A stretch of 64,000 bases of DNA from the NCBI GenBank assembly GCA_965178125.1, contig OZ237749.1, forward strand, positions 868,001-932,000. The letters run 5' to 3'. The position numbers were made by a program, and so were the translations under genes. Origin of the DNA: Bilabrum cf. latius (lineage: Eukaryota). The notes beneath the pieces are model-generated. The model was not told the DNA's origin. It did not search any database and saw only the letters and a list, made by a program, of their open reading frames with translations. Positions 27,076-54,264 of this stretch are shown in pieces. Position 1 is the stretch's first letter. The number at the start of each line of letters is the position of its first letter.

Positions 27076-27110
<35 letters not shown>

Positions 27111-27739
27111 ATGCCGGCGGGCAGAGCAGGCACATGGTCCCAACCAGGGGCCAGGGACTGGCGGTCTAGGGGCCTCGAAGGCAAGGCTGGGCTGCTGTGG
27201 GCGGATCCAGTCCCTGCATTCCCTGCCATGGCTGGTGTACCCGCCCTGCTAGGCGTTACAGCTCCGGCCAAAGACCTGGATGAGGCTCCGGACGGTGCTC
27301 CCACGCCTCCGCTGCTGCCTGCTGCGGCTGCTACCGAAACACCAGCCGCAGCACCACCGTAGTGCGGGGACTGCATTCCAGCTAGCTGGGCATAGTATGC
27401 GCCTGGAACACCGCTTGCACTCGTCAGGGGCATACCAGCGGGCGTACTATCGTCGGTCAAGCGCCCGGAAGAGTCCTCGCGGCTGTCGGTCACTCCGAGC
27501 GGAGCCCGAATGTGGGTCGGGACCCCCGCCTCCCTCCCGCCGCCGCCATAGTAACGAACCTGTGATCCAAGATTGCGAACGCCTCGGTGAGTCTGGCCAA
27601 CAGAAGATCCGGGACCAGGGACTGCGTGGCCGCCACTTCCGAGTCGTTGCTGCTCCGCCTCTGCTGCTGGTGAGTATTGCACCCCACGTCTGAACTGCCT
27701 GCCCGCGGCAGCAATTCGATCGTTAGCGGTTCTGTCCAT
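16008..27739 (-). CDS. NEK: Giant NIMA-related (NEK) Ser/Thr kinase, ~3,860 aa, with long low-complexity N- and C-terminal regions
   Basis: Kinase motifs IGEGSFG, VVIK, HPNIIRY, MEYADRGDL, ILHRDLKAQNIFL, KLGDFGIAR, IGTPYSLSPE, YNDKSDIWAL. One intron at 24647..24786. All flanking minus-strand fragments from 27739 to 16008 are in frame and separated only by TAG; ends at TGA 16008-16010. Confidence 0.85.
27077..27109 (-). repeat. (CAG)11 microsatellite encoding polyglutamine in the NEK N-terminal region
   Basis: Pure ctg repeat on the + strand, in frame with ORF 26972..27739 (MQQQQQQQQQQQR). Confidence 0.9.
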
Positions 27740-28066
27740 CTGATTGACCTATCTGGATGCGTCGCAAGCAATCCTGACGGGTTTCCAGCAACCGAGGCCT
27801 AGCTGGATGGTAACAACAAAGGACAACGAGCAGCAACGCAGTTTTTCGCTTGTCACGCCAAAAGCAAAGTAAGTAAATTCACTTATGTCACGGCAATTAT
27901 GGATGCGTTAAGAGCTTTCGCTCCCCGGTGGGACCAAGAATCCGTCGAGCAACTGGGCGCCGCGCATTATGATGTTCCGCATTCCTTTGGCGAAGGAGAA
28001 CCACTGAAACTGCCCTGCTATCAAGCAGACGGCGAATTCCTGTGTTTTTTGTTGTTAGATCGTAGT

Positions 28067-29048
28067 ATGTCTGGCTGGGGGGCATAGCGTGGCGGCAAGA
28101 AAGGTGGGAAAGGTGGGAAATCTGGTTGGGGAAAGCGTGGCGCGGCAGCTGGTAGATCATCAGCCAAGGGAGCCGGCGAGGACGCTGGTAGCAGCCGTGC
28201 AGTTGACGAAGAAATCGGCCAGGATACACGATCACTAATGCGTCTCAGCAGAGCGATTGCTGCTACCTCGGAGCAAGTTCGCAGAGGCACTGGATCTGTG
28301 TCGAGATTGTGAGAGCGCTGATGTTACTGTAGATTCACTACGCAACTAGTTCGCACTGAATGCTAGCCTGTCGTCTATGTATCTCAACAGCGGTCGCAGA
28401 CAGGCCCAGGTCAAGAGCGGGAAGGATCTCGTGCGAACCATGGTGCAGAAGCAGAAGACTCTGTTGCCGCAGTGGGTGGATGAAGCAGCATCAGAAGACG
28501 CGAAGGCTGGCCGGCGGCGAGCCATGCAGCGAGTCGCAACTCAAGCGAAGCAGGCGATTGAGGCGTTTGTAAGCGAAGAGGAGAAGGCCCAGCGCGCCGA
28601 GAAGGAGGCGGGCACTCCGGTGGCCAGCGACAGGGGCGCCGCGGCCCCCTTGCTAGGTTCCGCGCAGGACGCATCGGGCGACGCTGAGGCGCAGGCTGCC
28701 CTCGCCGACGCCGAGCAGAGGCTTCGGGTGGCGGAGCTGACCGGTGACTTGGCGGCGGAGAGGGAGGAGCAGATCGACCAGATCTACCAGGACACGGCCG
28801 AGGTGCACGAGATCTTCCAGGATGTGGCCGAGCTCGTGGAGGAGTAGGACGACATGGTGAGGACCATCGAGTTCAACGCAGTGGACGCGAGGGATCGGAC
28901 CGAGAAGGGCGTGGATGACCTGGACAAAGCGGCCGAGTACCAGGGTGCCTTCAGCACCAAGATCATCTGCTTTATCATCATCCTGGTGCTCATCGTGGCG
29001 GGGGTGGGCGGGTACTTGGGCTACAGGTTCACGCACAATAAGAAATGA
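28067..29048 (+). CDS. STX: Syntaxin (Qa-SNARE) with C-terminal transmembrane anchor
   Basis: SNARE motif EREEQIDQIYQDTAEVHEIFQDVAELVEE[TAG]DDMVRTIEFNA, then TM helix IICFIIILVLIVAGVGGYLGY; ends at TGA. Probable ATG 28067 and intron 28309..28366. Confidence 0.9.
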
Positions 29049-29781: not shown

Positions 29782-30655
29782 TCACCGAGGACGCCCCGGA
29801 CGACCGGGCCTGCCAGGGCCCCGCCCCGGACGACCAGGACCCCCGCCAGCCGCACCTGGTCTGCCGGGTCTCCCAGGTCGCCCGGGCCCACCCGCTCTCG
29901 CGGGGCCACCACGCCCTGGCCTGCCTCGGCCGGGCCTCCCTCCGGCGGCAGGGGCTGCTGCCGCCGCAGCGCCACCGGCTGCCGCGCCGCCGGCCGCACC
30001 GGCACCTGACGCTGCCTCTACGGCTGCGCCTGCTGCCATCCCTCCTTCAGTCATAAGCTTGACGAAATCATTCTTCTTGCCCGCCACCTTAACCATTTCT
30101 TCGGCCTCCTCGTCCGTGAGGTGCTCGCCAAGCTTTTGCATGCCCTCCTTCAGTGCCTCCGGTGTGAGCGCATCTTCTTCGCCTCCAGCCTTAAGAAGCA
30201 AGTCGTACGCATCCCCGAAGGCTTCAGAATACTTTGGATCGGACATCTTTTTGTGCATTTGGATTGCAAACGTTTCGAAGTCCACTGGGGCGTCCGTGTC
30301 GCGCCCGCTAAACTATCTGAGCATGTACTTGTAGTCGCTGTCGGTATATGTCTAATCTGCGATGGATAACACAAGCGTGCAACATCACGCAGCCACAAAA
30401 ATGCACAGGCGTGCCGCTACGAATGGCGCAACACTCCCGCCGGGGCCCTGCTAGTCCAAGAGTAGTACAGCGCCAAGTAGACCTGATCTTACCAAACTAA
30501 GTTTCTAGCAAATTCTTCAATCCCTCTGCAGTGATTTGCTCATCAGCGCCGGCAAACATGCTGAACGCAGACGCGTACTCTTCAAGCCTATCACGTTTAA
30601 TCCCCTTCTCAGCTAGCCGCGCCCTAGTCGCTGGATCCGTAGGACCCCCTGGCAT
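29782..30655 (-). CDS. Calmodulin/centrin-like EF-hand protein with Ala-rich linker and (GRP)-repeat basic tail
   Basis: EEYASAFSMF..ITAEGLKNLL, VDFETFAIQMHKKM, LKEGMQKLGEHLTDEEAEEMVK resemble calmodulin. Intron 30357..30492; three internal TAG; ends at TGA. Confidence 0.8.
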
Positions 30656-33650: not shown

Positions 33651-35161
33651 ATGAAGGCAGGGTACGCCGTCGCAATTGCTGCCGCTGGCGCTGTTCTGGC
33701 GCACGCATCGGTCCCGGACCATCCGGACATCCACACGTGCCACTATCATCCTAACATGTTTCATGAGTACGGCAAGGGACCAGAGAATCCCTTGAGCGAT
33801 TCGCCCGGCATCAGGTTCTACACGAACACGTCGGACCCACTCGCCGTCTCCCTCGATGGGAGCTCTGGAGCGTACTACTTCAGGTCAGGAACTGCTACTA
33901 CCTCCTGGTACATCCATCATCAGGGTGGCGGCTGGTGCGAGTCTTACGACGACTGTATCGGTCGCTCACAGGGCGGCCTCGGCTCCTCCAAGGGCTTCCC
34001 GCCGACTGCTGACCTGGGCGGCGGGTACTTCTCGCAGGACCCAGCTGTCAACCCCATGATGTACAACTGGAACTCCGTTTTTATGAAGTACACTGACGGC
34101 GCCAGCTTCTCCGGTGACAACAGCACCTCTGGCACCGATGGAGCGCACGGCCTCCATTTCCGCGGCCGTCGCATCCTCAACGCCGTGATCAAGCAGCTGC
34201 TCGAGTAGCACGGGCTGAACCAGGCCACCGAGGTGGTGATCAGCGGGTGCAGTGCGGGCGGGCTGGCCACGTACCTGCACGCGGACCACTGGGCCGATGC
34301 CCTGCAGGAGGCCAAGGTCCCCGTGAAGCGCATCGCCGCCCTCCCGGACAGCGGGTTCTTCCTGGACGAGCAGCTGGTGGCACCCGTCCCGGAGCCTCCC
34401 GTGCAGCCTGAGGGGTCCGTGAGGGGCGCGGGCCAGGTGGGCACGACTGTGCCTGGCAATTACCACGCCGGGCTGCGCTGGGTGTACCAGGCGCAGAACT
34501 CCACGGGTGGCTTGAACGCGCTGTGCGAGGCGACCGAGGCCAACCCGGCGGACTGCATCTACGCGCAGGTCAGCTCCAAGTACATCAAGACGCCCACCTT
34601 CCCGCTACAGGCCGAGTACGGTGAGACACGTTCGGAGTGCAGTGCGCATGGCGTGCTCGCCAACCATGAAGTCTAGCGAATGAATAGGATTTATCCCGTG
34701 CTTGTGTATGCATTTTGATTCCTAGCCTTTCCTTTGCATTTCATGCCCCGCAGACGCGTGGCAGACTGGGTTAGACTTTCGTGATAGTTTCTGCGTCACT
34801 GTCCTGCAGCGTGACATGGCTCGGCGGCGTCCATCGCGTTTGAACCACAGTCTCTCCCCCATTTCCTCCACTTTTTGTGCCCCGCAGCCACGTGCTGCCC
34901 CCGAACCCCAGCAACGATCTCATCCAGCAGATGGGCGACAACATCACGGCACTCGTCAAGAGCAACCTTCTGTCTCAGCCCCAGCACGGGGTGTACCTGG
35001 ACAGCTGCCACCACCACTGCGGTAAGTGGGGCGAACTCGAGATCGACGGGGACGTGCAGGCCACCGCGTTCACCAAGTTCTTCTACGGGATGACCAAGCA
35101 AAAGGTGTGGATCCAGGGCCAGAAGTACCCGTGCGATGCATGCTGCTCGGTGCAGCAATGA
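33651..35161 (+). CDS. Secreted pectin acetylesterase / Notum-family carboxylesterase
   Basis: Signal peptide; LDGSSGAYY, QGGGWC, NPMMYNWN, DGASFSG, LHFRGRRIL, catalytic GCSAGG, DSGFFLD, YDAWQ, DSCHHHC. TAG at 34206. Introns 34621..34753 and 34770..34887; ends at TGA. Confidence 0.9.
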
Positions 35162-35410
35162 GATGCAAGCAAAATGATAGCTTCATGCCAAGCCATGTTT
35201 TTGTTTCATTCTACACTGCTTGCTGTCTGCTTAACAACTAGATTTGAGCCTTCAATCGTGAGTCATGATCCAGAGCGACCGTCCAATCTAGGCTGGGCAA
35301 GTGCTCGGCATGGCACGACGAGGTGCCGCAGGGTCGGCCTCATACCACCGCTACAGCTCGCAGATGCGAACTGATGCTGCAGCTCAAGCCGTAGGGCTTG
35401 CATCGATGTT

Positions 35411-38400
35411 TTATTGGTTCGCGCTACCTGGCAATGAAGGTCCCGCATCGATATCCAGCACTTGAGCCTTGCCTCTCATCACTTCGCGTTTGACTGCACC
35501 AGCGACATCCAATGCTTCTCCCGTCGGCAGCATGGTCTATCCTTCTGTCAGTCCTACCTTGCCCATGGGTTTCCCCTCCGCATCCGTGGGCCCCACCACC
35601 GTCTGCACGGCAACCGCGTCACCTCGAGATAGAGGCTTTTCTCCCATCCCTTGCACATCAGTGCTCCGGAAGGCGCTCCCCTCGGGGGCAGGTATCCTCC
35701 CTGAAACGGACTGTCCAGCCAGCTCCCGCACTCGCTTAGCGCTCGCAACTTGCGACAACGCCCCGGCCACGGCATTTGTCACGCTGCCCGGCGCCGCCCC
35801 TGTCTCAATGGCGCCCACGCCGCTCGCGAGCCGTGCCGCCCTCGCCTCCGCCTCCTCCTGCGCGTTGGACGCCGAATGACTGTACGCAAGCGTGGTACCA
35901 GGACTATCATTTTTGCTGGGGAGCAGCTTCAACCCGCCCAGCATCGCGTTTTTCCTCTTGTTGCGCTGCCTCGCCGCTGCTGCCTCGGCCTTGTCCTCTC
36001 CATTGTCCTCGCCATTGTCCTCTTCCCCACCACCACCCTGCCGCACAATATCATGCACGATCTTTTCCTTTGCCTGCCTCAGCTCTTTCCTCTTTCTCTT
36101 CACCAGCTGGATCAGCCGGACCTGCTGCTGAGCAGCGGCCGTCTCGAGGATCTGAGCCACTCCGCGGTGCTCCTTGCTCGCCTTGAGCGAGTAACTCGGA
36201 GCCGATCTCTGCGCGATGAACTCCCACGTCCGCATGCGATCGCCGAACTTCTTGAGCTTGGTCCCGCTCCTGCACATGGAGGTGAACACCTTGACTCGCT
36301 TGTAGGCCAAGGGGTGCCGCTCCGGATGGGGAACGTACCTCCACCCCTCTCTGTGCAGATCAGGGGCCATCACGGGGGCCTTGTCCCCGGACTTTGGCAG
36401 GGGCTCCAGCCTCTGAAAGTCGGCTGTGAGGGGCGGGTTGAGGTTCTCGCGGTACGCGCTGCGCGCGGCGTCGAGGCCGCACAGCCTGCCGCACATGGCA
36501 ACGCGAGCCAGCAGGCCAAGGACCCTACGGGCCACCAGCATCCAGACCAGGTAGGTCACAGACAGGGCGATCGCCACGAGGATCGGCACGGCACCTGTCC
36601 GGCCGAGCCGCAGCCCTATCTGCATCCCGTCCCCAAAATCGAGGTCCTCCGTCCGCTCTCCTAGCGCACCGGCCCCACTCGATAGCAGAGCAGACGAGGC
36701 GCTGTCCCCAGCGGCAGCAGTGCTGTTCCTTGAATCGTTTGCGGGCCCGCTGCTAGCTGTAGCAGAGCACGTGGCAGGGATAGTGGGTGCCGCCGTCATG
36801 GACATGGACGGCATGAAGTAGTCGTCAGAGAAGCTCCACCACGCGAAGGCCAGGTGCAGCAGGAAGAGAGCGGGCATGATCCCTGCCGCGAACTGCGCGG
36901 ATTGTGCCCCAACCCGCTCCGGCTTCTTGTAGACGCGCAGCAAGAGGGCCATATCCACCCAGTAGGTCACTGCGAACGACAAGGCCGCCACGGGAAACAG
37001 GATGGGGTAGCCGGCGCTGAACATGAGGGTCACCGCGAGGTTGACCAGGGCGATGGCGTACCTGTCTTCAAGGTTGAATTCGGAGGGCTACACTGCCTCC
37101 TCCAGCTCTGCCTGAGACGCTGCAGTGCGCTCATTCCAGCAGCGATACACGCCCGCCACCAAGAACTCGTCGATGACAGTCATCAGGTGTGGCATGACAA
37201 TGTTGAACAGCTGGATGGCAACCACGCCGACCCCCACTCTCGCATGCCACCCATCATCCAGCGAGTCATAGTCCCCCTGGAACACACCCAGAAAGGCAGG
37301 CACGTAGTCCGACAGCACGGGCACCCTCGCGTTGATGGCCACCAGCACCACCGCGGAGTTTATGAACTGCGACACGAAGAGCTTTTGCATGAGAGAAGAC
37401 ATCAACAGCGACCTGCTCAGGTGCAGCTCCATGGCGGTCACGCGGTGCAGCACGGCCCGCAGCAACATGTTCATGAGAGTCGTGACGAAGCCAGCCAGGA
37501 TCATCAAACCAGAGGCGCTCATGTATCCTGCCACCAGGGCCTGGCACAACTTGCCGCTGTCACTATCAGACAGCACAGCAGCGGCTCCAGCCACGGGACC
37601 CTTTTCAGTGACTCGCCTGGTTAGCTCCTGCTGACAATAGCAGTCGACGAGAAGCGATGGAGGGTACGTTGTCGCGCGGTCCATGACAATGGCGGCGGCC
37701 GACAGCTCGGGCGACTGGCCAACTTCGTCCAGCTCCTGCAGCCCGAGGGTGGGGCACTCAACCTCATCCTCGTTCTCGTCCTAGCCACCAATGATCTGGC
37801 CTCCAACTGATCCAAATAGCCCGGCATTCCCCGGATCCACGCACGGACCCGCGCACCGGTCCACGAATACCAGCCCACCAACCGATGCAACGACCTGCAT
37901 CAAAGAACGGGGGTCACTGGCTTGCCGCATCCTCTCCGCCTGCACGTTGAGCTCCTGCCCAGCGCCAGCGGGCACCACTTCGTATTGCAGAAAGTATTTA
38001 CCAGTGCCACCAAATTCAAACGGATCCTCGCTTGAACTGGTCTGTGTGGTCCCAATGGACACGTTGGTGGCACCCAGTACAGCCGCCGGAGACCTGTCTG
38101 ATCTGCAGACGGACTGCTCAAGGTTTCGCTTCCGGACAAGAGTGGGCATCCCCGCGCTAGCGTTTCCAAAGCTAGGATCCACGAGTCGTGTACCGGCAGC
38201 CGAGCTTGGAATCTCGTTTGCGCACAGCCATGCGGACTTAAAGCTCGCATCCACGGAGCCAGCGGCCGTCTCAGCTGCTGCAAAGACAAGCAGGCAAAAC
38301 AGCAGAAACAGGGCAAGGATGCCGCAGACGAGGCACCTTCTCAGTCTCAAACTGCACTCTGACACGCCGAGGTTTGCTAGCACGAGATCTTCTGGTGCTG

Positions 38401-40293
38401 GGCTTGGCTCTACCTTGAGGGCAACAGGCTCGGTCCTGTGGCGGCGTTTCTTGGCGGGAGCAGCATCTGATCCTCCACTGCTGCTCTCGTTGATTCCACT
38501 GCCACGAGCGGCATCAGTCCCATCCGTGTTGTTTCCATTGTCCAATGCCCATCCGAGCCGCAGCCTAGCCGGCTGCGTCATCCTACCTGGGGCCCACGTA
38601 GAGTCGCCAAAGTCCTCGACGCACCGCCTCCACGATTCCTCGCAGTTAAAGGTCACGAAGGCCATCGATGCATCCCCGCTGGCAGCCTCGGCCAGGTGTA
38701 TTTTGAGCTCCTTGACGCGGGCCATTCGCTCGTCAGCAACCTGGGTCCATGTCGCGTGGAGGTCTGGGTCTCTCCACGGCGACACTGGCGAGTACTTGCC
38801 CTGCAGCAGAGTGGCTGCCGTCACCTCTTTCATGGCCTGTTCGATGCCGTCGTGCAGGTCCACTGCGCGCGAGAGGTCGCACAGCAGCTGCACGTCGGCA
38901 ACCCACGAGTCCTTGTAGCCGTGCTTGCGGTTGTGCCTCCCACTCCTCGTTGGAATCGATCGGTTGGCGCCACCCCTGGCGTTGACCCGAGGGTACCCGT
39001 TCCCGTCGAATGGGTCAGGCATGAGCTTCGGGCGGCGGGTCCACTTGGTGCAAGAGGTCCAGTCATCGGCGGTGAGATTATACAGGCTAGAAAAGTGATC
39101 TCGCACCTCTTCTTCCGTCGCATCTGGCGGAAGGCACCTCACGAGCACCGTGTACTGCGCGAGCGTCAGCTGGCTGTCGGCGCCGCCGAGGCTCACCTAC
39201 CTGACGAGCGACCGAAAGTACCCTGCCGCCACCAGGAACACCACGGCTGCAGCCACGTCCAGCAGAGCAAGGCCCAGAGTTAGGGTCTGGAACTCGAAGG
39301 GAGCATCTATGCCCAGGATCGTGACGGGTGTCTGGGCTCTCGCAAGAGAGTTGCAGCCGTCGCTGGTCGCATCCAGTGCGGGCTTGTTGGATCCCAGCGA
39401 CCTCGGACCGCTATTCGATAGTGCGGTGCGGGCGATGAGGAGCGCATCAAGCCATTCAGGAGAAGTTCTATCGCCAACAACAGCAAAGAAGAGGGTTGGA
39501 GCGGACACAAGGGACAGGATGGCGAATGTGAAGGCCATGTATTTCTGCGGGAAAGGGTTGGCGTGATTGCGTAGTTGCCTCTGCTGCGGCGGGGTGTGTG
39601 GCTACTCAAGAGGTGCCATATACATTCTCTTGGACTCACCAGAAAAGAAAAGTATAGCTGAACCCCAGGACCTAGTTTTTCGGTCTAGTCAACATTGGAG
39701 CAGCAGATAGGCGCCGTGCCGTGGCTGAACACGCTGGACTGCTGCTTGAGCCGAGCAACGGCCGGATTCGGCGGTAACCAGGGAAGATCAAGCATAGTAG
39801 TGACTTTCTCGCTGGCTATAGAGCTATCTGGCGCGTTCTTAGACTAGTTTGCTGGCTTCCCCACGGGCATCATGCCTCTGGTTCGTCGCTTCTGCACGCC
39901 ACCAGTGCCTGAGCGTTCTGCGGCCTTGGCAAACCGCAAGCCATCAGCATGCATCCTTGCCACATTTCTGCGAATACTTAGTGCATCCGTGCTTTGAGAC
40001 TGCGCTCGCTTCTCTATTTTCTGCTCCAGAGATAGTCCTTCATCATCCGAAACACCCCCGCCAAGCCGTCGGACTTCTTCGAGCGCCCTCTCTCGCATGC
40101 GCTCTTCCATTTCAAGCCCAGCAATTTCCTTCCCTGATAATGAAGTTGTATCCTGCAGCATTTGCGCGATGGTTCCATCTGCCACAGCTTCATCGTATTC
40201 CGAGAGGTGAGGTACCACTCGTTGGTAATGCTAGATATTGTCTTGCGCTGTTCCAACGGTAAGCTTCCGGTTGGTACCCGTTCTTGAACTCAT
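35411..40293 (-). CDS. OSCA/TMEM63 (CSC1-like) mechano-/osmosensitive cation channel
   Basis: LGPGVQLYFSFL|KYMAF, QYTVLVRCLP, AFVTFN, PAPEDL..NL, KLFVSQFINS, FSAGYPILFPVAALSFAVTYWVD. Intron 39545..39639; several internal TAG; first non-TAG stop is TAA 35411-35413. Confidence 0.85.
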
Positions 40294-40508
40294 GATTGGA
40301 TTACTTTATCATTGCTTCGTATGGTCGTATTGCAACATGCCTGTGGTCAGAGCGTATGAGCGAGGCGAGCGCTGCAACGGAACGAGAGAGAGAGAGAGAG
40401 AAAATAGAGTTGGAACGCTCGTGAAGCATCCGGCGCTGGCACTTCCGGCTTGAATCCACGGGGCCCCAGGCGCTTCCCCCCCTTCACTTGCCTTCCCAAC
40501 GACACTTA

Positions 40509-43307
40509 ATGCTTATCATCATACTATTGTTATGTGCACTTGCAGTAGCGTGGGCTGGAAGTGGCCAGGGTAGCCCAAAGTTGCAGTGGTTCCTGGTTCA
40601 AGCCTTGCGGCGCGGCGATCGAGGCGCTGCTCAACAAGCAATTCGAGCCGGTGCAAGAATGGAGCAGACCAACGATTTTGACGGGCGGGCTCCTTTGAGC
40701 TCACTGCTGCTGGGCTGGCAAAGCTAGCTCGAAGACTTTCCTTGCTCCCGCTGTGTTGACAGCTTCACTCGTTTTGAGAAATTGTTGGACAGCGTGACAA
40801 GTGGGGTACCTCAGCAACGTCGCAACAAAAGAAATCGAAGACGTCTGGCCAGAAGACGATCGCCTGGTTCACAGCGTGATCTACCTGAGGCGCTTAAGTC
40901 TCGTGTAGCTGCAGTGGGCTGCCCGGTCCAGGATGCAGCGCAGCTTAGGCTGATAAATGCAACCTCTTTGCTTCTCCGAAGGTCATCAGCTCGATTTATT
41001 CGTGGTTGTGCCGCGGAAATCGATGCGTACGGGCAGAATTTGCTCCATGTGCTTGCTGGCTCGCGCGCACAAGGCTTCAGTCGAATTGCCCTGAAGGTCC
41101 GAGCAAATTTGCGCTCCGACGTTGCGGCAGCCAATGCCCCAAGCCTAGCTTACATGTCAGCACTTATGGGAATCGACTTTGCTAAAACGTTTGCCGGACA
41201 TGCAGATGACATATAGGGCAAGTATGCTGACCTGAACTAGCCTTGGGCCCCCCTGTGGCGGTGGAAATTGGAGCATGCGGTGGAAGAACATGCCATCAAT
41301 GGTGTGATTGCGCCAATAGCACTTGCACTGCGTCGAAAACGCGCCTCGAAAGGTTTGCTGAGTGATACCCCTCCCACGGATTCGCTCTCTTTCTCAGAGA
41401 GCTCAGTGGCCGCTTCTCTGAGTGACGAACTGCTTCTAGCACGGGATGCCCACGGGAGGACACCTATGGGTGTGGCCTGCAGGGAGGGCGGACTGCCGAC
41501 CGCGCGTCTGCTGCTCAAGCGCGGTGGAATGCGGCATGTTGGAGAGCCAGCAGACGAGTCCACTGGGCAGACTTGCCTACATCTCGCCGCTGGGGCAGGC
41601 TGGGCGGATATCGTGGATCACGTGCTCGTACGAGCGAAAACCGTCGAGAGAAATGGTAGTATAGGGCCTCTTCCACGGCTATTAGGAGCGCGAGATATGT
41701 TTGGCCGCACTCCTTGCGATGTTGCGTCCGACGGCTTCTCTGGAAGTGCCATGGAGCAGCGGCTTTGCGGCGGCAGGGCAGGATCAGGAGATGGGCCAGT
41801 CCGTAAATCAGCATCAGCAAGCGTAGAGAGAATGCTGGCTCATATTTCGGGACAACAGACTCAGTCTGCCGTCGGTTTCGCGAAAGTAAGCTTGCACGCT
41901 CGGCTGGGACGGCCTCTAGCCGCAAACGAAGTACTAGCTCTCGATCGCTTGCTATGTAGCAATAAGGCCAACAGTGCTAGCATCGTTGGTGCAACAGAAA
42001 CTGGATGGTCCCTATGCACACAGTACCAGAGCTCTGTACGCCAAGCCGTGGCGCGGGCCATTGCGAAGGCAGACCGTGTCAATGCGGTGCGTTCATCCAA
42101 TGGTAGCCCGCACTTCGTGCCAGCTGCCCCGTTGGTCATCAGCGCCGTTGACACATGCAGCGCCGAGCTGGCCGAGTAGGACGAACACATTGAAAAGTGC
42201 TCTGAGCAACAACGCGCAGCCATCAGCTGGGAGGTGCTGCTGGCAGCCAGCAGTCGAGCCCGGGCGGCCATGCGGCCAGTGCTGGTGTCCATTGAGCCAA
42301 GCACGGCCCAGGAGCAGGTCCTGGAGCACGCACCCAAGCAAGCGAGCACTCGCACACGCGATCTAGCCAATGCGTTGTTGCTGGGCCGGTGCGCCGCACA
42401 GGAGGTCGATTCAGCTGCAGGGCAGGCGTGCAGTGGCTGGGTGTCCTCTGGCGAACGAGAGGCTTGCTTGAGCTGGCGCGAGCTGTGCGAGACGGTGAGG
42501 CCGGGAGGACTGGAAGAACGCTTCGGGAGCGCGACCGTTCAGCCGGGCGCACTCCCACACGGAGACGTGTATGGAGCTGGTGCCTCTGGCGCGGATCCGT
42601 TCCCGCTCGTGACAGAAGGCAGGCTTGCCATGGGACTGGCTGCAGTTGCCAACTGGACCGAGGCGGTTGCCAGCAGTAAACCGTCGCCCAGCTATGTTCC
42701 ACGCGTGCAACCACCGCATAGATAGAGTCTTCGGTCATTCGTTGATAGTTGGGCCCGTGGTCCTGCATCGGGCACAGCAGCAGGGCAGCAAGCGCCGGAA
42801 TCAGGCCAACCGGCTGATGCTGCCAGTGGTGCCGAAGCTGACCCGTTGCAGCCCCCTAAGTACGTGTTCGATGGCCGAAGTCTAGTGGCAGACCCTATTT
42901 TGAAGGGTTTTCCTCACCACGCGATGCATGCGAGCAATGCCACGGTGAAGCAGATAGCGATCGGGCCCACTGGATCCGGCGCCATGCCGCACTACCACGG
43001 GAGGGCGACGAACGCAGTGGCCGTTGGGTGCAAGCTGTGGTTCGTGTGGCCCCCATGCTCGGCATTTTTTGTGGAGGTGGATGCTCTGACCTGGCTGCAG
43101 AGAGGCATGCCCTCAATGCAGACCGCCACTGCATGCGATGCCGATGCCAGCGCATTGGACGCTGGAGAGGAGCATCTCGCCGGATCGGTGCCCGTCTACC
43201 GCTTCATGCAGTGCGCCGGAGAGGTGGCGGTCGTTCCAGAGGGCTTTGGGCATGCAGTGATCAACCTGACGCCGAGCGTGGCGGTGGCATGGGAGGAGCC
43301 AGCGTAA
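40509..43307 (+). CDS. Signal-peptide protein with ankyrin repeats and a C-terminal JmjC/cupin domain (JMJD8-like)
   Basis: N-terminal MLIIILLLCALAVAWA. Ankyrin motifs GRTPMGVAC, GQTCLHLAA, DMFGRTP. JmjC motif IGPTGSGAMPHYH..KLWFVWPP..GEVAVVPEGFGHAVINL. Five fragments in one frame split by TAG; ends at TAA. Confidence 0.8.
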
Positions 43308-43742
43308 GTGCCAAGGCTCCGTGGCAAACGCTGCCGTGCTTTGCGGTAAGGATCCATCATCAAATCTGAATTGTGGAGCTTGGCGTGTGCAGAAAATAAG
43401 TCATTATATTTGTGTTTTTTGTCGTCGCAAGACAACACCCAAGACCACCACACCAGCACGGCCTGACCGGGTCGTTTGCGACCAAGCCACCCATCCTCCA
43501 CCGCACCAATAATGATCTCACAGGATCAAAAGAAGAATTTGTGGCACCGTCCAAGCGGTGCAGCCGCAGCCACGCGTTCTACCCGCTCTTGGATCAAGTA
43601 CCCTTCAAGGTACAGCCCCTAGGACCGAAAATTCAAGCGATACTTCCAGGGCCACAGACCGAGCCAAGCTTTTGCACTGCCATGAGCATTCTGACTTCAT
43701 CGCAGCCTTATAAGCCGGCCCAACGATGCACCCATAGTTCGC

Positions 43743-46206
43743 TTACCTTCGGAAGCCGCCGCCGCCGCGGCCACGGAACCCGCCGCCCCGTCCTCCCCCG
43801 AAGGACCTTCCCCTGCCTCCGCCGCGACCGCCTCCCCCGCGCCACCCGCCGCCGCCACCACGGCCACCGCCGCCACCACGGCCGCCTCCACCGGCATCGG
43901 GCCTAGCCTGAAGCTCAGGAAGCTTCTTGGGGATGGACAGCCTGGTTCGGTTGTCCTCCATGGCCGCCTTGAAGGCGTCCACGTGCTGCGCGGGCACGTC
44001 AAACACCGCGGCTGTCGAGTCCTTGGTGATTGTGATGCCGCGCACCTGGTTGGAGACGTCCATGGGCACCTCGTTGTTGAGCAGAGCAAACACCCCGCCT
44101 GCGCCCCTTAGTTCGTACGGCGCCGAGATCATGAAGGCCAGGAAGCCCTCCTGCGCGGAGAGCAGAGAGCGGGGGGCCTGCTTCTCCGTGAAGCCACCGA
44201 TCACCGCAAGCGCCGAGGCCATGGCCTTGACCGGGTCGTTGGTCTCGAGGTACTCGGCGGCCTGCTCCTCGAACACGCCCAGCATATCTCCGTGAACGCC
44301 CTCGAGTGCCTGCACCGCATGCTTGGCTGCCGACCGCACCATGTCTGCCATCTGGGGCACGCCCACTCGCTGGAACTCGATGCCGACCTTGTGCTCGATG
44401 GCCTTGATCAGGTGCGCCTGCTGCCGCTTGTACAGCGTGATGCACACGCCCTTGCGCCCCGCGCGGCCAGTCCGGCCCGATCGGTGCACGTACGTGTCGG
44501 TGTCCGCGCGCCCGCTGAAGTTGAGCTCCGGGGGCTGCACGTTCACCACTAGGTCCACACCGCGGATGTCCAGGCCGCGGGCGGCCACGTCGGTGGCCAC
44601 CAGGCACCTGACCCTTCCCGACCTGAAGTTCTGGAGGGTGACCTCGCGCTGGGCCTGGGGGATGTCACCGTGCAGCGCCTTGCAGACGGTCTTCATGGAC
44701 TTGTCCTGGATGAGGTCGTTGCAGTCGCGCTTGGTCTGGCAGAAGATGATGGTGCCGCCCTTGGGCCCCGCGTGCACCTTGATGAGGTCACTGCAGGTGC
44801 TGCCGCGGGCCTGGTAGGGGCACTCGAGGCACAGGTGCTTCACGTCCTTGGAGGCCTGCTGCTCGCTGTCGCCCACAAGGTCCACCGAGAGCGGGTCGTC
44901 CATGTACCGCTGGGCCACGCTCATGACCCAGTCGGGCACGGTGGCAGAGAACAAAAGGATCTGCACCTTCTTGCCCACGAACGCAGCGGCGGCGGAAGTG
45001 GAGGAGGACGAGGAGGCCTTCATGGAGGCCGCTGCCTGTTCCCCGAACTTCATGACCTTGGAGGACTGCGGGGGGGGCTTGGCCTCCCTGCCCTTGAGAG
45101 AGGGCATGTGCGCCAGGATGAACTCGATGTCGGGCTAGAAACCCATGTCCAGCATCTGGTCGGCCTCGTCGAGGATGAGGTGCTCGCACATGGTCACGTC
45201 CAGGGACCCCTGTTCCATGAGGTCCTTGACGCGGCCCGTCGTGCCGACGATCACGTCCACGCCCGAGCGGAGCTTGGACTTCTGGGGGCCGATGGCGGTG
45301 CCGCCGTACACGGTGAGGGTCTCGATCCCCGGGGCGCTCGTGTCAAAGTCCACTGCCACCTGCTTGGCGAGCTCGCGGGTGGGCGCCAGGCAGATGACGC
45401 GAGGCTTCCTGCCGTACGCGGGGCGGCGGGCCTTGTCTGCCGCCAGCAGCGTCTCGATCACCGGCAGCGCGAAAGCAAGGGTCTTTCCCATACCAGTCCG
45501 TGCGCGTCCAATCATGTCGCGGCCTTTTCGGATGTCTGTGTAGGTCATGGCCTGGATAGGAAACAAGGTCACGATGCCGCGCTTGGCAAGGGCAGCCTTG
45601 GTGGGCGCGCTGCGAAAATAGATGAGAGGGGAATGAGAATAATTTTAAAAATGGTAACTCTACTCGTTTCGTTCTCATCTGCTGGCCGAAAGTGACTTTC
45701 TAGCTGAAGGAACACCGGCGAGGTACTTCAGCACGACGGTTCACTTCCAATGGCGGAAGGCGACCAGGACCGCCCACTGCACGATTTAAGTGAATTCACG
45801 CTGCGGAGCGATTCTGTACTAACCTAATATCAAACTTGTCGACGGAGACATTGCCTGGCACCACTGGCTTGCCATCGTCCTTCGAGGCACTCGACTTTCC
45901 GTTTTCAGAAACTCGGGCCTTCTTCGCACTTCTTTCGTCTTTGGACGGGCTTCTAACGAATGACGACGATCCATTTTGACTGAATGTTGTGCTAGAAGGG
46001 GCGGACGATCCAGCGCCAGACGCAGCTGCAGAAGCATCGGAACCGGCATCGGAACCGGAGTCCTCCAGTTCGTTGCGCTTGCGCTTCTTGCCAGACGACG
46101 AAGACTTGCTCTCGCGCTTGCTTGACTTGGACTTCTTCTCCTTCTTTTCTTTCTTTTCCTTCTTGAGGGCTCGCTTCAACTCTTTCTCTGCAGCAGTCGA
46201 CGGCAT
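43743..46206 (-). CDS. DDX21: DEAD-box RNA helicase of the DDX21/DDX50 type, with GUCT-like domain and RGG tail
   Basis: LFPIQ, ARTGMGKT, PTRELA, DEAD, SAT, HGDIPQ, ARGLD, HRSGRTGRAG, RSLL...AVFDVP, RGG tail; Lys-rich N-terminus. Intron 45610..45823; TAG at 45135 (LDMGF*PDI). Confidence 0.92.
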
Positions 46207-46412: not shown

Positions 46413-47283
46413 TCAGGCCGAAGACTCAGTCGTTTCCGGCTCCAGTCCACTGGAGGACCTGCTGTCGTCCTCGTCGCTCGAGGGAACAAGCCGCCGAGCT
46501 GCCGACCGCACCGCGTCTATCTCATTGGACCCCAGTCCCATACCCCTGTACCGCCTCTCCCTTGCGCCCTCATCCTCATCCTCATCCGCACCCTCACTCG
46601 CCCTCCCGCCCTACACGCCGTAGTCACCACTGATGGCATGACTATCATCATGACTATCATCATACTCCCTGTCAACCCCACTGACCGCGTCCGCCCCAGA
46701 CCTTCTCTCCGAAGAAGCCAGCGAGGAACCCGGGGACGGCAAGGCAGAAGTGCCCGCGCTCCGAGGGTGTCTGCTGCCCCCAATGCCGACCCCTCCGTCG
46801 CTGCGAAGGCTCTCCCGGGACGATGGACGGTCAGACCCTGGCCCGCCGCTTCCGTCCCCGACATATCCCGTCTCTTTATCGTCCCCAGTGCGACCCCCTC
46901 CCAGTTCCTGCTGTTCCGTCACAACAGCCTGGCCCCCACCCAGCGCCCTAACCGTTACCGTGAACCGCTCCACACCACCCTCCTCATCCTCCTCCTCCTC
47001 ATCAACACGGCCGCCGCCGGTTCGAGTCGGTGCCCCTGCCGCATCTCTCCCTCCGTCCTCCACCCCGCCCAACCCGCGCAGCTTCAGACGGATCCTCGTC
47101 GTGTCTCTGTCCCCGTCGTTGCCACCTTCCAAGGATGCGCCGCCCCGAGGTGAATCGCCCTCTGCGACCTCATGCAGAGAACCACCATCCACACGATCCA
47201 GTGCCTCGCGAGCGACTCGTGCATCCTGGTACACAGCTGCCGCCCCCGATGCTCCGCCATCCACACCCTGTCTGTCGGCACCA

Positions 47284-47314
<31 letters not shown>

Positions 47315-50237
47315 TGCCACCGCTCGCGTCAGGTGATACTCCGATCGCAAACGCATCGGGCCCCAGAGCACCCTCCGCGGCTGCTGCTCCCAGCAAGCTT
47401 CCCAACGCCGCCCCACCTGACATACTTCCGTACCCACGACCCTCCTCCCCCTCCCCCTCCTCACCCACGCCCTCACCCCACCCCGGCACCTGCCCCGCCT
47501 CGTCCAGCTCGCGCGCCTCCTCGTAAGCCGGATCAGCGCCCTCCACGTCGCCTTCCAACGCGGTCACGATCCGCCCCTGCAGCCAGCCCTGCGCCACCTG
47601 CAGCACCCCCGGCCTCGCCAGCCCCCTTCTCCTGCCCCCACTGTGTTTGGCATATGCGGCTGACCTGCTTCCAAGGCCCCCCGAACTGCCCTTGCCCTTG
47701 CCCCTGCCCCTGCCCTTGCCCTTGCTTCCTGAGGAGTGCATACCCCCAGCCAAGGCCAAGTCCTCGCCAGGCCCGTACCTTCTTGCCCCCCAATACGCAC
47801 CCCCGTGTTCCCTGGCACCCACTTCTTGCTGCGTTGCCCTCCTGCCGGCACCCAGCGACTGCCCCTCACTCGTCTCCTGTCCCAGCGCGCTGCCGATCGC
47901 CTCCCACGGCGCCCCGCTCGAGGGTGCCGTGGCCATGCGCTGCTAGGCAGACACGTCCGCGGTGCACCCTGCGCGCGCGAGGTACTGCGCCAGCGCGCTG
48001 CCCACCGGAAGTCCGTGCGCCGCTCCCGCGGGAATGAGGCGACTGCGCCTCTCCTTGCCTCCTGTCTGCTGGTCGCCTTCGGGTCGCGCCCGCTCGTCTG
48101 CCTGATGGGGCTGCTGGCCGGGGATGCGGCGCTGCTCCCGCTACTGGGCCAACTGTCGGGAAACTGGTCCGGCATGCAGCGGGGCAAGAGGTGGGGGTGG
48201 CAGCGGCACCACCGAGCGAAGGTTCGTTTCGCTGAAACGAGGGTTCTCGAGGGGTCGCGGGGCTCGGTTGGGGTCCCCCGTCATGGGGACGACCCATGCC
48301 ACCGCGGGGGCGTCGGGGGCAGCCTACGCACCTGCAGCCGCCGCCGCTCTCCCGCGGTTGAGATTACGATGCGCTGCAGTCGCCTGGTGTGCACCTGCGG
48401 CGCGCGCCTGCTGCTGCCCCAACGAACTTGCCGCCCCCTGGTCCAGGTCCACGGCCCGCCCCAACGCACTCGCCAGTCGGACTCCAGCGATGGCCCGCCT
48501 CTCCTCCGCCTCCTGCTGCCTCTGTCGCTGCTCCCTCCTGCGCCTGCGCACCTCTGGGCCCACCTTGGACCTGACGTGCTGCAGGTATCTGGGCCCGCGC
48601 CCCTTCAGCACCGCCTTGTCCTCGAAGCTGATGCCCCGGCCTGAACCGTCCTCCTCCTCCAACCCCTCGTCGTCCTCGTCCTCGTCACCGCCTGCTGCTT
48701 TGCGAGACACTGCCTGCCGAGCCGAGGCATCGGCAGCTCGGGCCCTCACCGCCGCATTGGCCCCTCTCCTCTGCACCTCTGTGGCGCGGGCCCTCCTCGC
48801 GTGCACCAGGAGCTCACCGCCCTCCTCCAGCCGGGCCTGCGTGGCCTGCCGCTGCTGCCCCGCCGCCCTCACGTGCCGCTCGAGTGCCTCACCCCAGAGC
48901 TGTGACTCCGGGTCCATGCGGTTCCGCACGCGGCGCCGCGCCCTGCGGACGCCCCTCGACTCGGCATTGTTGTGGGGCTGAGGAGCGGCACCTGTCCCGT
49001 GCACTGACACGAACGAGCCGTCGTGCGTTCCTTTCTCCTCCTATGTCTCCTCCTCCTATTGATCGGCGCTGTCCTCAGGCCGGGAGGCCCCATTTCCCCC
49101 ATCATCATCTACTTTTTTGGCCACGTGCTGGCGAGCACCCTTCCTGGATCCGGTGTGCGCGCACTCGTCACCGGACAGAGTCGCATCAAGTCGAGCAAGC
49201 GCCTGTCTGTCCTCCTCCTCGGTCCACGCCCCCTGCTGACTCCCTTCGTCCCTCACCACCGCACCCCGACTGCCTCCCGCACCGCCCGCACCCGCCTCAG
49301 ATCGCCCTGCTTGTCGCTGGCTCTGGCGCTGGCCATATCCAGAGGAGGGCACCCGCAGGTACCGGGCTGTGACGAGGTCGTCGACCCACGGGCTGTCCAC
49401 TCCATCAGGATCGTGGCGCTGCTGCTGCTGCTGCTGCCCCAGCGCGGATGCCCGTGAGCGCGAGTTTCCTTTCGGCATGCGAGCACTCCTTCGCCCGGGG
49501 AACCGTCTCGTGCGCAGAGCAACCCTGTGTCGCCGAGGATCCAGTCCTTCGGATACTTGCCTGGCTCCTCTCCGGCTCATCTCCTGCTCAGCCTCCGTGT
49601 CGCTTAAGGCGCCGCCTGCTGCACGAGCATGGCGGCGTGTAGAGGACGCCCCGTGCACCTCCACCAGAGCTGTGTCGTCCGCAGAGAAATGAACCATTCG
49701 GGAAGCAAATACTTGCTCCATGGTTCCGTTCTTATCAACGAATGGAAACTGTTCCATGGCGTGCGGTAGTCCCATGTACGGTCGCGGCCTCGGATGGCCA
49801 AGGCGCCGGTGGCTTGCACGTTTTACTCGCGGGGCGACACCGACAGCATTTTGCGTATGAACACCGGTTTCACCGAAATTTTGGTTTTCTAACGGCGGGC
49901 TGGATTTCGTGTTCGCATTGTTGATGACCACGGCATCGGCGGCTTCAACTAGCGTTCGTTTCATGCTAGCGATGCTCTCTTGCAACTATTTGCCGTGTGA
50001 AACAGTAACTCGGCCTTGAGCTGCCTCCTAAGCTAGCTTGTGAACGCTTTCGAGCGAAACAGCAGCAAGTTCAGCTGGCGATTCCTGAGCGTTCAATGCG
50101 ACGAGAATTCCGAGCACGCTGGCCGCCTTCACAGCGGCATTCCAGTCTTCCTCAGGCATTCCATGAAGATATTCTCGAACGTATCTATTTTTGAGTAATG
50201 ATGAATACATAAAGTTAGGAGATGGTCTCTTAGGCAT
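46413..50237 (-). CDS. Hypothetical low-complexity protein, ~1,270 aa
   Basis: Fragments 50028..50237, 49056..49985, 48324..49010, 46611..47936 are in one frame split by TAG; ends at TGA 46413-46415. No domain recognised. Confidence 0.6.
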
Positions 50238-50457
50238 TTTCAGAGGCCCACAAGATGGCTGCTAAATTTGAATCGATGCTTGCTGTTGCTGTTCGAACCG
50301 CTCCGAACGATTCTGGTTTTCCTGGTAGTATGCAAACAACACGTTACATACCTGCAAACGGATACGGGGACAGACAAACAGTTAAAGTTCCAGCCAAAGG
50401 TAGACTTTGCAGGTAATTTTATCGCAATTTTAAGGATTAATAGCTTGTCGATATACC

Positions 50458-51855
50458 ATGGCATCAGCCTCTTCCTTTGAAGACGCGAAAGCATACTTGC
50501 AAACGAAGGACGGCGAGGGGAGCGTGTATGATCACCTTTCCGAAGTTGTTCTCAAGCTGATTGAGGAACGACCAGGGGATGCGCTGAAATAGCTCGAACA
50601 TATTTCGTCTGTTGTCAAAGCGAGCACTGTAAAATCTGATTCCGCCTCCTCCGGCGCCGGGAAGTCTGATGATCCCGACGCGGTTGCGGCTCGCGCCGCT
50701 GCGGTAGCCAGGCTGGACGAGGCGCTTGCTGTGCTTAAGGTACCAGGTGAGGATGATGAGCCGGGGGAGTTGGGCGAGGGCCTGCAGGATTTGACAGATG
50801 CGGCAAACTACTTGGAATGGGCCGGCGTGTCCCTCGGCCGGGAGGAGATGTTTCGGCTGCACCTGAGCCTCAAGTCTCTGTCGGCAACGACGAGTGCGCG
50901 GGACCTCCGATTCTTTGGCAAGCTGCAGGGCATGGATGGCGACTACATCGTGGCGGAGGGCAAGATCGACGCCCCGGACGAGGAGGAAGAGGGCGACAAG
51001 GATGCCCTGGGCAACGTGATCGAGCGCACTGGCGAGGCCGGTGCCAACCTCTGCACCTACTGGGTCTGCCCGCACGTGGGCGGCAAGTGGACCCAGCTCC
51101 CCCGCGTGACTCCGCACCAGATCATCGTCTCGAGGCAGCTGAGGAGGTACCTCAGGGGCGACCTGGAGGCCGAGGTGGGCGGACACCCGCCCTTCCCCGG
51201 CAACGAGGCGGCCTACCTGCGAGCCGTCATCGCGCGGATCGCGGCCGACACGGCGGTGGCTCCCGCGGGCCACTTCCGCCGCGTGGAGGACGACGAGTCC
51301 CGAGACATCGAGGTGGTCCCGGATGACGAGTACGCGGCGGAGGACATTGCCAGTGCCGATGGGTGGGTGCACACCGCCCTGCAGTTCGGTGCCAAGAGCG
51401 GACGGACGGCGCCCAACCCCAAGGAGGACGAGGAAGAGGAGGGCGGTGACGGGGAGGAGGAAGAAGAGGAGCCCGCAGAGCCCCTCAAGGCCATCGCGGA
51501 AGACGCGGGCGAGGGCGAGGAGAACCCGCCCTGGCAGGTGAGGGCTGTGCCCTCCGCCGGCATCCCTGACCCGGAGCCCGGGCTGGTGGTGGTCAAGTCG
51601 ACGAAGTGGCCAGGAGCCGTTGCGGTTGGGTTTGGCAGGCGATTTGCGTGCGCGTACGTCGGATACGGGATCGAGGCAGCCAAGGCGCCCTACCAGCCTG
51701 CGCTCCCGGCTCCCGTGCCGGCCGAGTTCACCGTGGCGGCTTTCAACCCAGCGGCCGAGGAGGCTGTCTTTGCAGAGCAACCAGACGTCCTGGAGGACCC
51801 CAACGCGGGCAAGCCAGCGGAAGGCGAGGAGGGCGAGGAGGAGGACGACGAGTGA
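50458..51855 (+). CDS. RSPH4/6: Flagellar radial spoke head protein RSP4/6 family
   Basis: N-terminal AKAYL..VYDHLSEVVLKLIEERP..[TAG]LEHISSVVK; LRFFGKLQG..DYIVAE; GEAGAN..YWV; WTQLPRVTPHQI..SRQ; PPFPGNEAAYLRAVIARI; VKSTKWPGA; YVGYG. Ends at TGA. Confidence 0.92.
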
Positions 51856-52052: not shown

Positions 52053-52171
52053 GCCATTTGGCGAAACGTCGTCGGCTTGCAGGTGTGCGGCTCAATGCGC
52101 ACGGAGTTTCCAGCCATTTGGGGAAACGTCATCGGCTTGCAGGTGTGCGGCTCAATGCGCACGGGGTTTGC
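52053..52171. repeat. Two-copy 60-bp tandem repeat between the convergent RSP4/6 and sulfatase 3' ends
   Basis: gccatttgg.gaaacgtc.tcggcttgcaggtgtgcggctcaatgcgcacgg.gttt at 52053 and again at 52113, with few mismatches. Confidence 0.9.
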
Positions 52172-52200: not shown

Positions 52201-54264
52201 TCAGTCGTACTCGAGATCCACTTTGGATGCCTCGGACAGCTCCGCGGCCGACATGCTCCCAGGGCGCGGGCAGCTGCCCGTGTAGCAGTGGTCCACGCAA
52301 AGCCGTCCCGAGGGCCAGAAGGAGCTCTCCTCGTGCTGCGAGTCCATGAACTCGCCCATGCTCTTCAGCACGGGCGCATACTGGGGCTGCCCCGCGAGGT
52401 TGGTCTCCTCCCCGAGGTCCGCCGTGGTGTTGTACAGCTCCCAGGACACGTCGCTGTCGGGAGTGGGAGACGTGTAGTTCTTGTTCATGCGGATGCCGTG
52501 CATGCCGTCGGTGGAGAACACAGACTGCGCCCAGCCCGCGCCGTACCCGAAATCGTTGCCCTGATGGCAGAACTCCCAGTAGATCTGGCGGTCGGCCGCC
52601 TCCACCGGCAGCTGCTCGGAGACAGCCGATGGTGACCCGGACCGGAGGGCGTTCGTGCTGCTCGAGTCCTCGTGCTGGTCGCCACTGCCAGGGTACAGTG
52701 CCTGCTTGAAGGACACCCCGTCGTGCTTGGGGAGCGAGGCAGGCTGGATGCCGGCCAGGTCAGCCATGGTGACAAGCAGGTCGGGATAGTATGCCAGCCA
52801 GTTCGTGCGCTGTCCTGCCATCGGCGAACCGGGTGCGCGGACGATGAAGGGGCTGCGGACTCCTCCGAGGTACACGCTGCGCTTGTAGCCTCTGAGCTTG
52901 CACGCGGAGTTGAAAGAAGGCGTGACGGGTGCCTCTGGGCCGTTGTCGCTCGCTGCAGTTGAAAAGGGCGTGGTCAGGAAGGGAAGGGCATAGATCTCGT
53001 GACGTGAGACAACCATTGGGAGAGCAAATGAGCGACGCTGCAACGGTGCGGTATGCAGCATGTAGACAGATGAAGCGTGCATCCGAGCCGTGACGGTCGC
53101 TGCCCGACCAAACAACACTGCCCGGAATCATCTGCATCATCATAGAGCTAGATGCTAGACGCGGTTCCTCCTTCAGGCTTTGCTCACTCATGATGACCAC
53201 CGTGTTGTCGTCCAGCCCGCTGTCCTTGAGCTGCTGCAACACTGCACCCATGGCCGCGTCCATCTGCGTGACCGCGCTGGCATAGTCCACCTCCTCTTCC
53301 TTCCACTTGCCCTCGTACTGCTTGTACTCTGGCGAGACGAAGGGCACGGCGTAGGGCCCCGCCGGGATGGACTTGGTGGGGTGCTTGCAGTTGCCCTCGT
53401 GGGGGGTCACCACGGACAGCCAGGCGAAGAAGGGCTTGCCGTCCGCGGCCCGCTCCTTGATGTACTCCTTGGTCTGATTCACGAAGAGGTCCTGTGAGTA
53501 GGTGCCGCAGGCGTCCTGGTTGCCCTACACGGCAAAGGTCGAGTTTTGCTGGTACAGCGTCGCAGGGTACCAGTCGTGGCACTGGACCTACGTCTCGTAC
53601 TGCATCAACGAAGGAAAGAGGAGCTGGCTCGCGGTTCATACGCCTCAGCAATCATCGAGCCCGAAGGATGTTTGAAGCGTCGTACAACGGTTTGATGAGG
53701 CGTAGCACCGATGGTGTGCTACCAGAGCAGACTGTCTTTGCGATGCCGGCACCACTAAGCATATGTACATGACACAATACTCACGCCATAGAACTTGTCG
53801 AACTTCTTGGCGGTTGGATACCCCGTTGATGTCTGATTACCAAGCCCCCACTTGCCGAACAGCCCGCTGTGGTACCCTGCCAGTACCTCAGGAATTGAAG
53901 GCTCGCCTGCCTTGAGGGGACAGGTCGATCCATCGTTTTGCCGGAGCGAGACGTGGCCCGAATGCAGCCCAGTGATCAGCGTTGAGCGAGAAGGCGCACA
54001 CACAGGAGACGAATGGCCAAGGTCAAAAATTAGGCTCTCCTTCGCGAACGCATCCAAGTGCGGGGTTTGAATATCAGGGCCGTATGAATCTGGGTTTAAA
54101 CCCAGCTACTTTCCGTAAATGTTCGGTAAGTTGCAAATCCCGAGATCGTCGGCAAGCAATAGCACGAAGTTTGGCTTGTTTGGCAGACCGGAGGAGGCTG
54201 CCTGAGACAGAAAAAAGATGCTAGCCGAATACAGATAGCGAATCAATCGCGCATTGCTTAGCAT
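52201..54264 (-). CDS. Secreted formylglycine-dependent (S1) sulfatase
   Basis: Signal peptide; KPNFVLLLADDLG, TPHLD, CAPSRSTLITG (CxPxR), FGKWGLG, SDNGP, LRGYKRSVYLGGVRSPFIV, WELYN...EETNLA. Introns 53600..53784 and 52953..53187; internal TAGs; ends at TGA. Confidence 0.92.

Follow-up and report, generated by a model that had tools for sequence, protein, structure and literature searches.

Evidence for a nuclear genetic code with UAG as glutamine and UAA as a stop in a relative of Cafeteria

A nuclear code in which UAG specifies glutamine while UAA and UGA remain stops has been reported for Iotanema spirale, in which genes never end with UAG (PMC5304391), and the same codon table is given for the ciliates Hartmannula sinica and Trochilia petrani, and for Protocruzia tuzeti as cited (PMC11687900). 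The eRF1 of Iotanema carries the replacement T32G in its GTS motif, a change linked to weakened UAG recognition (PMC5304391), and for H. sinica and T. petrani PMC11687900 reports that a suppressor tRNA was not found. In the UAG-leucine codes, those of the rhizarian exLh and of phyllopharyngean TARA metagenome-assembled genomes with a tRNA-Leu-CUA, UAG alone is likewise reassigned, with UAA retaining its stop function by the same CUA-anticodon logic, although the amino acid differs. Here we describe a 64 kb stretch of DNA (positions 868,001 to 932,000 of contig OZ237749.1, assembly GCA_965178125.1, Bilabrum cf. latius), called the window below, in which in-frame TAG is frequent within genes and in-frame TAA was seen only at their ends. 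Sequence comparisons make it highly likely that UAG was turned into a glutamine codon separately from UAA, with UAA and UGA as the stops, in a Cafeteria-related bicosoecid clade of at least two species. The original prediction for this stretch had proposed such a decoupling, and its view of UAA as a stop and UAG as a sense codon is backed by the orthologue termini and by the exchange of TGA and TAA in a sister species, both described below.

Stop triplets within and at the ends of genes

When TAG is read as sense, the window (GC ~61%) has open frames delimited by TGA, the longest running to 2,886 codons. Genes were modelled by hand, giving 18 complete 3′ ends and a coding set of 23 stretches comprising 17,751 codons. 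Fifteen of the ends are TGA, three are TAA and none is TAG, in what is a small sample of hand models. The TAA ends lie at 35411-35413 (-), 43305-43307 (+) and 43743-43745 (-), where the original prediction had placed them, and its statements that the remaining complete genes end at TGA and that TAG is needed nowhere as a terminator agree with these models. Termination at TAG, which it had said would speak against decoupling if frequent, was seen at 0 of the 18 window ends and at 0 of 2 ends in the sister species, again few cases. Within the coding set, TAG occurs in frame 90 times and in 22 of the 23 stretches, alongside 600 CAG and 163 CAA, and accounts for 90 of 853 glutamine codons if counted as glutamine; in-frame TAA and TGA both number zero (note that three of the 23 stretches end at their own TAA by definition). 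No codon was seen in both internal and terminal use in this limited sample, TAA and TGA being found at ends only and TAG internally only.

The absence of internal TAA despite routine use of CAA, also part of the original prediction, can be put in numbers. The A-ending shares are 0.21 for CAR, 0.20 for AAR and 0.26 for GAR (R, A or G), and from such shares 22-33 TAA codons would be expected if both UAR codons were glutamine. The probability of finding none is 3e-9 to 1e-12, and P is still at or below 4e-6 when the three terminal TAAs are scored as glutamine. The caution that TAA is rare at this GC content is correct insofar as TAA is the rarest stop triplet in the window, but it leaves the in-frame gap unexplained. 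Off-frame TAA is ordinary in the same coding DNA (31 in frame +1 and 57 in frame +2), and the gap is thus frame-specific rather than a product of low TAA frequency at high GC. TAG use drops as third-position GC content (GC3) rises (rho -0.58, p = 0.007, 20 stretches), as expected for a non-preferred codon.

The TAA ends and their counterparts in other species

The OSCA/TMEM63-like gene (35411..40161, -; Pfam Anoctamin/RSN1_7TM) was modelled with two exons and an intron at 39545-39639, its start codon being uncertain. The upstream exon (39640-40161, -), which ends with GVQLYFSFL, lies beyond the long open frame, and the modelled exons carry six in-frame TAG codons. The TAA stop (35411..35413, -) lacks GT donor context, and an orthologue (P0410) shares 155 of 177 residues with it through the last one and has its stop in the same column. 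The final in-frame TAG of the gene (35537..35539, -) lies 42 codons ahead of the stop, and the orthologue has glutamine there. The TAA overlaps an AATAAA word (CAA TAA AAC, 35408-35416, -) and might double as a polyadenylation signal.

The ankyrin-JmjC gene (40509..43307, +) has five in-frame TAG codons and stops at a TAA (43305..43307, +) in the context GC|GTAAGT. Its orthologue P0128, which is 92% identical, has its end at the same residue. Among 150 JmjC homologues, 117 could be scored for the length of the tail past the motif His, the 33 without the terminal motif being dropped; the median tail is 18 residues, as in the window protein, and only 4 of the 117 have tails of 60 residues or more, whereas read-through to the next TGA would yield a tail of ~71. 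The C-terminal part of JmjC was also used in a metagenome scan, where none of 136 candidate stretches was a relative. The last exon of DDX21 (43743..45609, -), which encodes DEAD, Helicase_C and GUCT domains and has one TAG at 45135-45137, stops at a TAA (43743..43745, -) after ...GGFRR in the context AG|GTAAGC. An orthologue that is 87% identical (P0001) ends in the same column, and the 40 homologue ends inspected are mostly RR, RRY, RRF or RW, with one GGFRR as in the window. The three orthologue contigs may be DNA or RNA and would, taken alone, be compatible with a conserved intron. These comparisons suggest that all three TAAs are protein ends at natural C-termini, as originally proposed for JmjC and DDX21 and now seen by homologue for OSCA as well; DDX21 is the least secure.

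A metagenome scan with an RSP4/6 alignment gave 13 loci, among them L001-L003, which are 98-100% identical to one another and are thus taken as one species. Their RSP4/6 shares 73% DNA and 83% protein identity with that of the window, gene order is the same, and the GC content of this sister species (55-58%) is somewhat below that of the window. Its ~1,420 codons contain nine TAG and no TAA (P ~0.02). At both ends that can be compared, TAA stands where the window has TGA, and neither TAA falls within GTAAG: the RSP4/6 stop (51853..51855, +) reads GAG TGA TTGA in the window and GAG TAA TTGA in the sister species, and the sulfatase, which ends with TGA at 52201..52203 (-) in the window, has a sister orthologue ending GAC TAA GCA, without a GT donor. 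The sister RSP4/6 also has TAG at positions 109 and 220, both of which are CAG in the window, position 220 being the invariant Gln of VTPHQ. The comparison thus shows TAA exchanging with TGA, and TAG with CAG. A further TAG in the sister sulfatase lies 12 codons ahead of its TAA, and conserved residues continue past it.

Two of the three terminal TAAs, those of JmjC and DDX21, lie within GTAAG, versus 37 of the 328 TAAs in the window. This is mildly unusual (binomial estimate ~0.03) and made the earlier caveat that these TAAs could be intron starts worth testing. Eleven introns were modelled from frame and homology (the NEK intron is excluded from the 11); all are 87-235 nucleotides (nt) long and end with GCAG (e.g., 34621-34753, 39545-39639, and 52953-53187), and GTAAG serves as a modelled donor in the Na/H exchanger (NHE) gene. 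Downstream of the JmjC TAA there is a single GCAG in range (89 nt), and splicing there would give one Lys and then TAA again. As a GCAG is found 87-240 nt downstream of 78% of random places, its presence here does not speak for an intron. DDX21 has no GCAG acceptor within 87-235 nt downstream, and a 70-nt splice option would append 49 residues without relation to the homologues. GTAAG also occurs ten times within open coding stretches of the models. The donor-like context noted earlier is real, but with JmjC reaching a TAA even when spliced and DDX21 lacking a fitting acceptor, the caveat probably dissolves for the most part. The GCAG acceptor is narrower than the usual YAG, and donors are GTGAG, GTTAG, GTAAG or GTATG.

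The residue at UAG and competing explanations

Alignments support glutamine as the probable meaning of UAG, and the best-conserved sites all agree. The TAG in the SNARE motif of the syntaxin (28845..28847, +) faces the Gln of LVESQ in five of the five alignments shown, all of them to syntaxin-1A; this Gln is presumably the zero-layer glutamine. At RSP4/6 residue 45 the window has TAG (50590..50592, +) and the sister species CAG, and the eight nearest full-length relatives have Gln (six) or His (two). In all, TAG in either the window or the sister RSP4/6 is opposite CAG at three of three sites. Gln or TAG flanks TAG in 30 of 360 cases versus a background of 0.048 (p = 0.003). Solved-structure alignments of NHE, NEK and sulfatase were uninformative on TAG. 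Sequencing error and pseudogenes were rejected as sources of the TAG codons, as was recoding of the selenocysteine or pyrrolysine type, since the TAGs are too numerous and orthologues have Gln.

Several observations weigh against this assignment or the wider scheme. A neighbour-context score placed V, L and E over Gln, which came 10th of 20; for samples of true Gln the same score gave the right residue in 69 of 100 cases, and the concentration of TAG in low-GC3 genes may confound it. In the fast-evolving gene at 46413-50381, which is 48% identical in this comparison, TAG faces Gln at 0 of 10 sites, compared with 6 of 36 for ordinary Gln codons, and the sulfatase TAG is opposite Glu. Among distant homologues, Gln occupies the TAG column in 10 of 120 (DDX21) and 9 of 70 (RSP4/6), and for NHE9 the column holds Asp, for NEK1/7 Arg. 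TAA ends are few (three in the window plus two in the sister species), and a non-GCAG acceptor 128 nt downstream of the DDX21 TAA would add seven residues and lead to TGA. The placement beside Cafeteria given below comes mainly from a single gene, for which one member is named, DDX21 being placed only loosely.

The context score and two TAG sites opposite Glu in orthologues could be taken to mean that UAG is sense for another residue, such as Glu or Leu; the TAGs might also be sequencing errors, or be edited from U to C to give CAG. We consider each of these very unlikely, given that the best-conserved TAG sites face Gln, that error or editing should also have hit CAA/TAA and CGA/TGA although in-frame TAA and TGA are both zero, and that the independently assembled sister species has the same pattern at other positions. 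The commonest eukaryotic variant code is a coupled one in which both UAR codons are glutamine (PMC11687900), and as no stop triplet is less frequent in the window than TAA, UAA could be a glutamine codon that is merely rare at high GC. Hardly any weight can be given to this explanation: the TAA codons predicted from the A-ending shares are missing, each candidate TAA coincides exactly with a conserved protein end, and the sister species swaps TAA with TGA, not with CAR.

The remaining alternatives concern the stops themselves. UAA and UGA could be plain stops while UAG perhaps still terminates some genes, for only 18 gene ends were sampled and TAG is found twice in the last 50 codons versus 4.6 times expected. 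If UAG terminates any gene at all, the likeliest instance is the frame with a Schlafen AlbA_2 domain by Pfam (8974-14841, -; 1,955 codons), in which a TAG lies 14 codons ahead of the TGA in a low-complexity tail. This mixed use of UAG appears improbable, as the shortfall near gene ends is not significant (P = 0.17), the late OSCA TAG is Gln in an orthologue with a conserved tail, and the residues past the late TAG of the sister sulfatase are conserved. Alternatively, UGA could be the sole working stop, the TAA ends being GTAAG intron donors or chance, a proposal that draws on the GTAAG excess and on the real GTAAG donor in NHE. It is very doubtful in view of the OSCA end, which has no GT donor and an orthologue conserved through the last residue, the failure of splicing with GCAG introns of the modelled lengths at JmjC (Lys and TAA) and DDX21 (none in range), the GTAAG words within open coding stretches and the position of both sister TAA ends outside GTAAG. 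Separate reassignment of UAG to glutamine, with UAA and UGA as stops, is the explanation that we favor.

Lineage, mechanism and comparison with described codes

Pfam searches of the window proteins returned eukaryotic families: a NEK-type kinase, SNARE, Na/H exchanger, pectinacetylesterase (PAE; stop at 35159-35161), OSCA/anoctamin-like and ankyrin-JmjC, as well as DEAD/GUCT, radial spokehead, sulfatase, GH127 and EH. One clade of the RSP4/6 tree (support 100/100) unites the window protein, locus L002 and P0280 and is sister to a clade with P0400 (support 96/94; 100/99 was also obtained). The latter is Cafeteria roenbergensis KAA0147853, from a bicosoecid stramenopile by taxonomy and the sole named member there; its identity to the window protein is 60%. 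The DDX21 placement is looser, amid mostly unnamed entries and separate from oomycetes and ochrophytes. These placements indicate that the window comes from the nuclear genome of a Cafeteria-related bicosoecid stramenopile. An RSP4/6 protein labelled Symbiodinium sp. KB8 (P0296) clusters with the entries closest to bicosoecids and is possibly an assembly contaminant. Locus L004 (1-6162) is a Cafeteria-like contig of 72% GC with the same assembly prefix as L002, so that members of the recoded clade may be found together with Cafeteria-like flagellates; TAG is absent from the two complete reading frames of L004, which are too few to prove a standard code.

Other features of the window include the NEK-type kinase gene (16008-27750, -), with ~3,900 residues and a kinase domain that follows a low-complexity N-terminus of ~850 residues, and a small protein (29782-30384, -), calmodulin-like by eye, with an Ala/Gly-rich tail containing GRPG repeats. 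The 3′ flank of the sulfatase gene (~52070-52165, -) has a ~45-base stretch in two near-identical copies, 60 bases apart.

The code change would need a tRNA-Gln with a CUA anticodon, probably one change away from tRNA-Gln-CUG, that decodes UAG and not UAA. A UUA anticodon reads both UAA and UAG whereas CUA reads UAG only (PMC5304391, PMC11687900), and a CUA anticodon is proposed here because UUA would read both codons. Scanning found no tRNA gene in the window or in the 13 metagenome loci, and the modelled genes of the window do not include eRF1. Glutaminyl-tRNA synthetase would charge the new tRNA, and eRF1 would have lost most of its affinity for UAG while still recognizing UAA and UGA. The original wording, by which rejection of UAG by eRF1 is a necessity, goes too far if taken as a visible motif change: the eRF1 of the UAG-leucine rhizarian has conserved motifs without obvious deviation, according to PMC5304391, and a visible change in the eRF1 of this clade is thus not guaranteed. 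The change most likely came later than the split from Cafeteria. Because Cafeteria, with four genomes, is a close relative, the changes in eRF1, tRNA and glutaminyl-tRNA synthetase should be directly comparable, and a recoded and a standard lineage would form a close pair within a group known as host to giant viruses and virophages. Gene calling with the standard code would break most genes of the clade, so that protein databases cover it poorly; of two close orthologues, only pieces that begin downstream of window TAG sites appeared.

Literature searches, the lists of known cases in PMC11687900 and PMC5304391, and passages of PMC11412368, PMC12153298, PMC10120064 and PMC6972860 gave no nuclear stop reassignment in a stramenopile, although a prior report is possible. 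C. roenbergensis, in the sister clade of the RSP4/6 tree, is GC-rich and has few introns like the window, and its genome paper, in the text accessible to us, mentions a non-standard code for the mitochondrion only (PMC6972860). On balance we lean toward regarding the present case as the first nuclear code change recorded in stramenopiles, in a multi-species clade sister to Cafeteria in which UAG alone became glutamine, in a GC-rich genome with UGA as the dominant stop. A free-living bicosoecid would extend UAG-glutamine codes to this major group of eukaryotes.

The code itself is already known from Iotanema and some ciliates; what is apparently new is the lineage, together with a GC-rich genome in which UGA is the main stop. 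Coupled codes, as in Tetrahymena, hexamitins, ulvophytes, Amoeboaphelidium and Streblomastix, share UAG as glutamine and UGA as a stop, but there UAA is glutamine too. The dual internal and terminal codon use of the context-dependent codes of Condylostoma and Blastocrithidia was not seen in the window sample. Iotanema belongs to Fornicata, an unrelated lineage, and its genes end with UAA in 104 cases and UGA in 15 (104/119), compared with three UAA and 15 UGA here (PMC5304391). For the class of these ciliates PMC11687900 gives GC contents of 27-54%, with 86.9-98.3% of genes ending at UAA, and argues that such heavy use fixes UAA as a stop there, whereas the window has ~61% GC and UAA at 3 of 18 ends. 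UAA is thus the dominant stop in the published cases, and the 3 of 18 seen here tests whether heavy use is needed to keep UAA and UAG apart, although the sister species has TAA at both ends seen. If the present interpretation is correct, UAA can persist as a stop without heavy use, which points to the asymmetry of the CUA anticodon as the reason.

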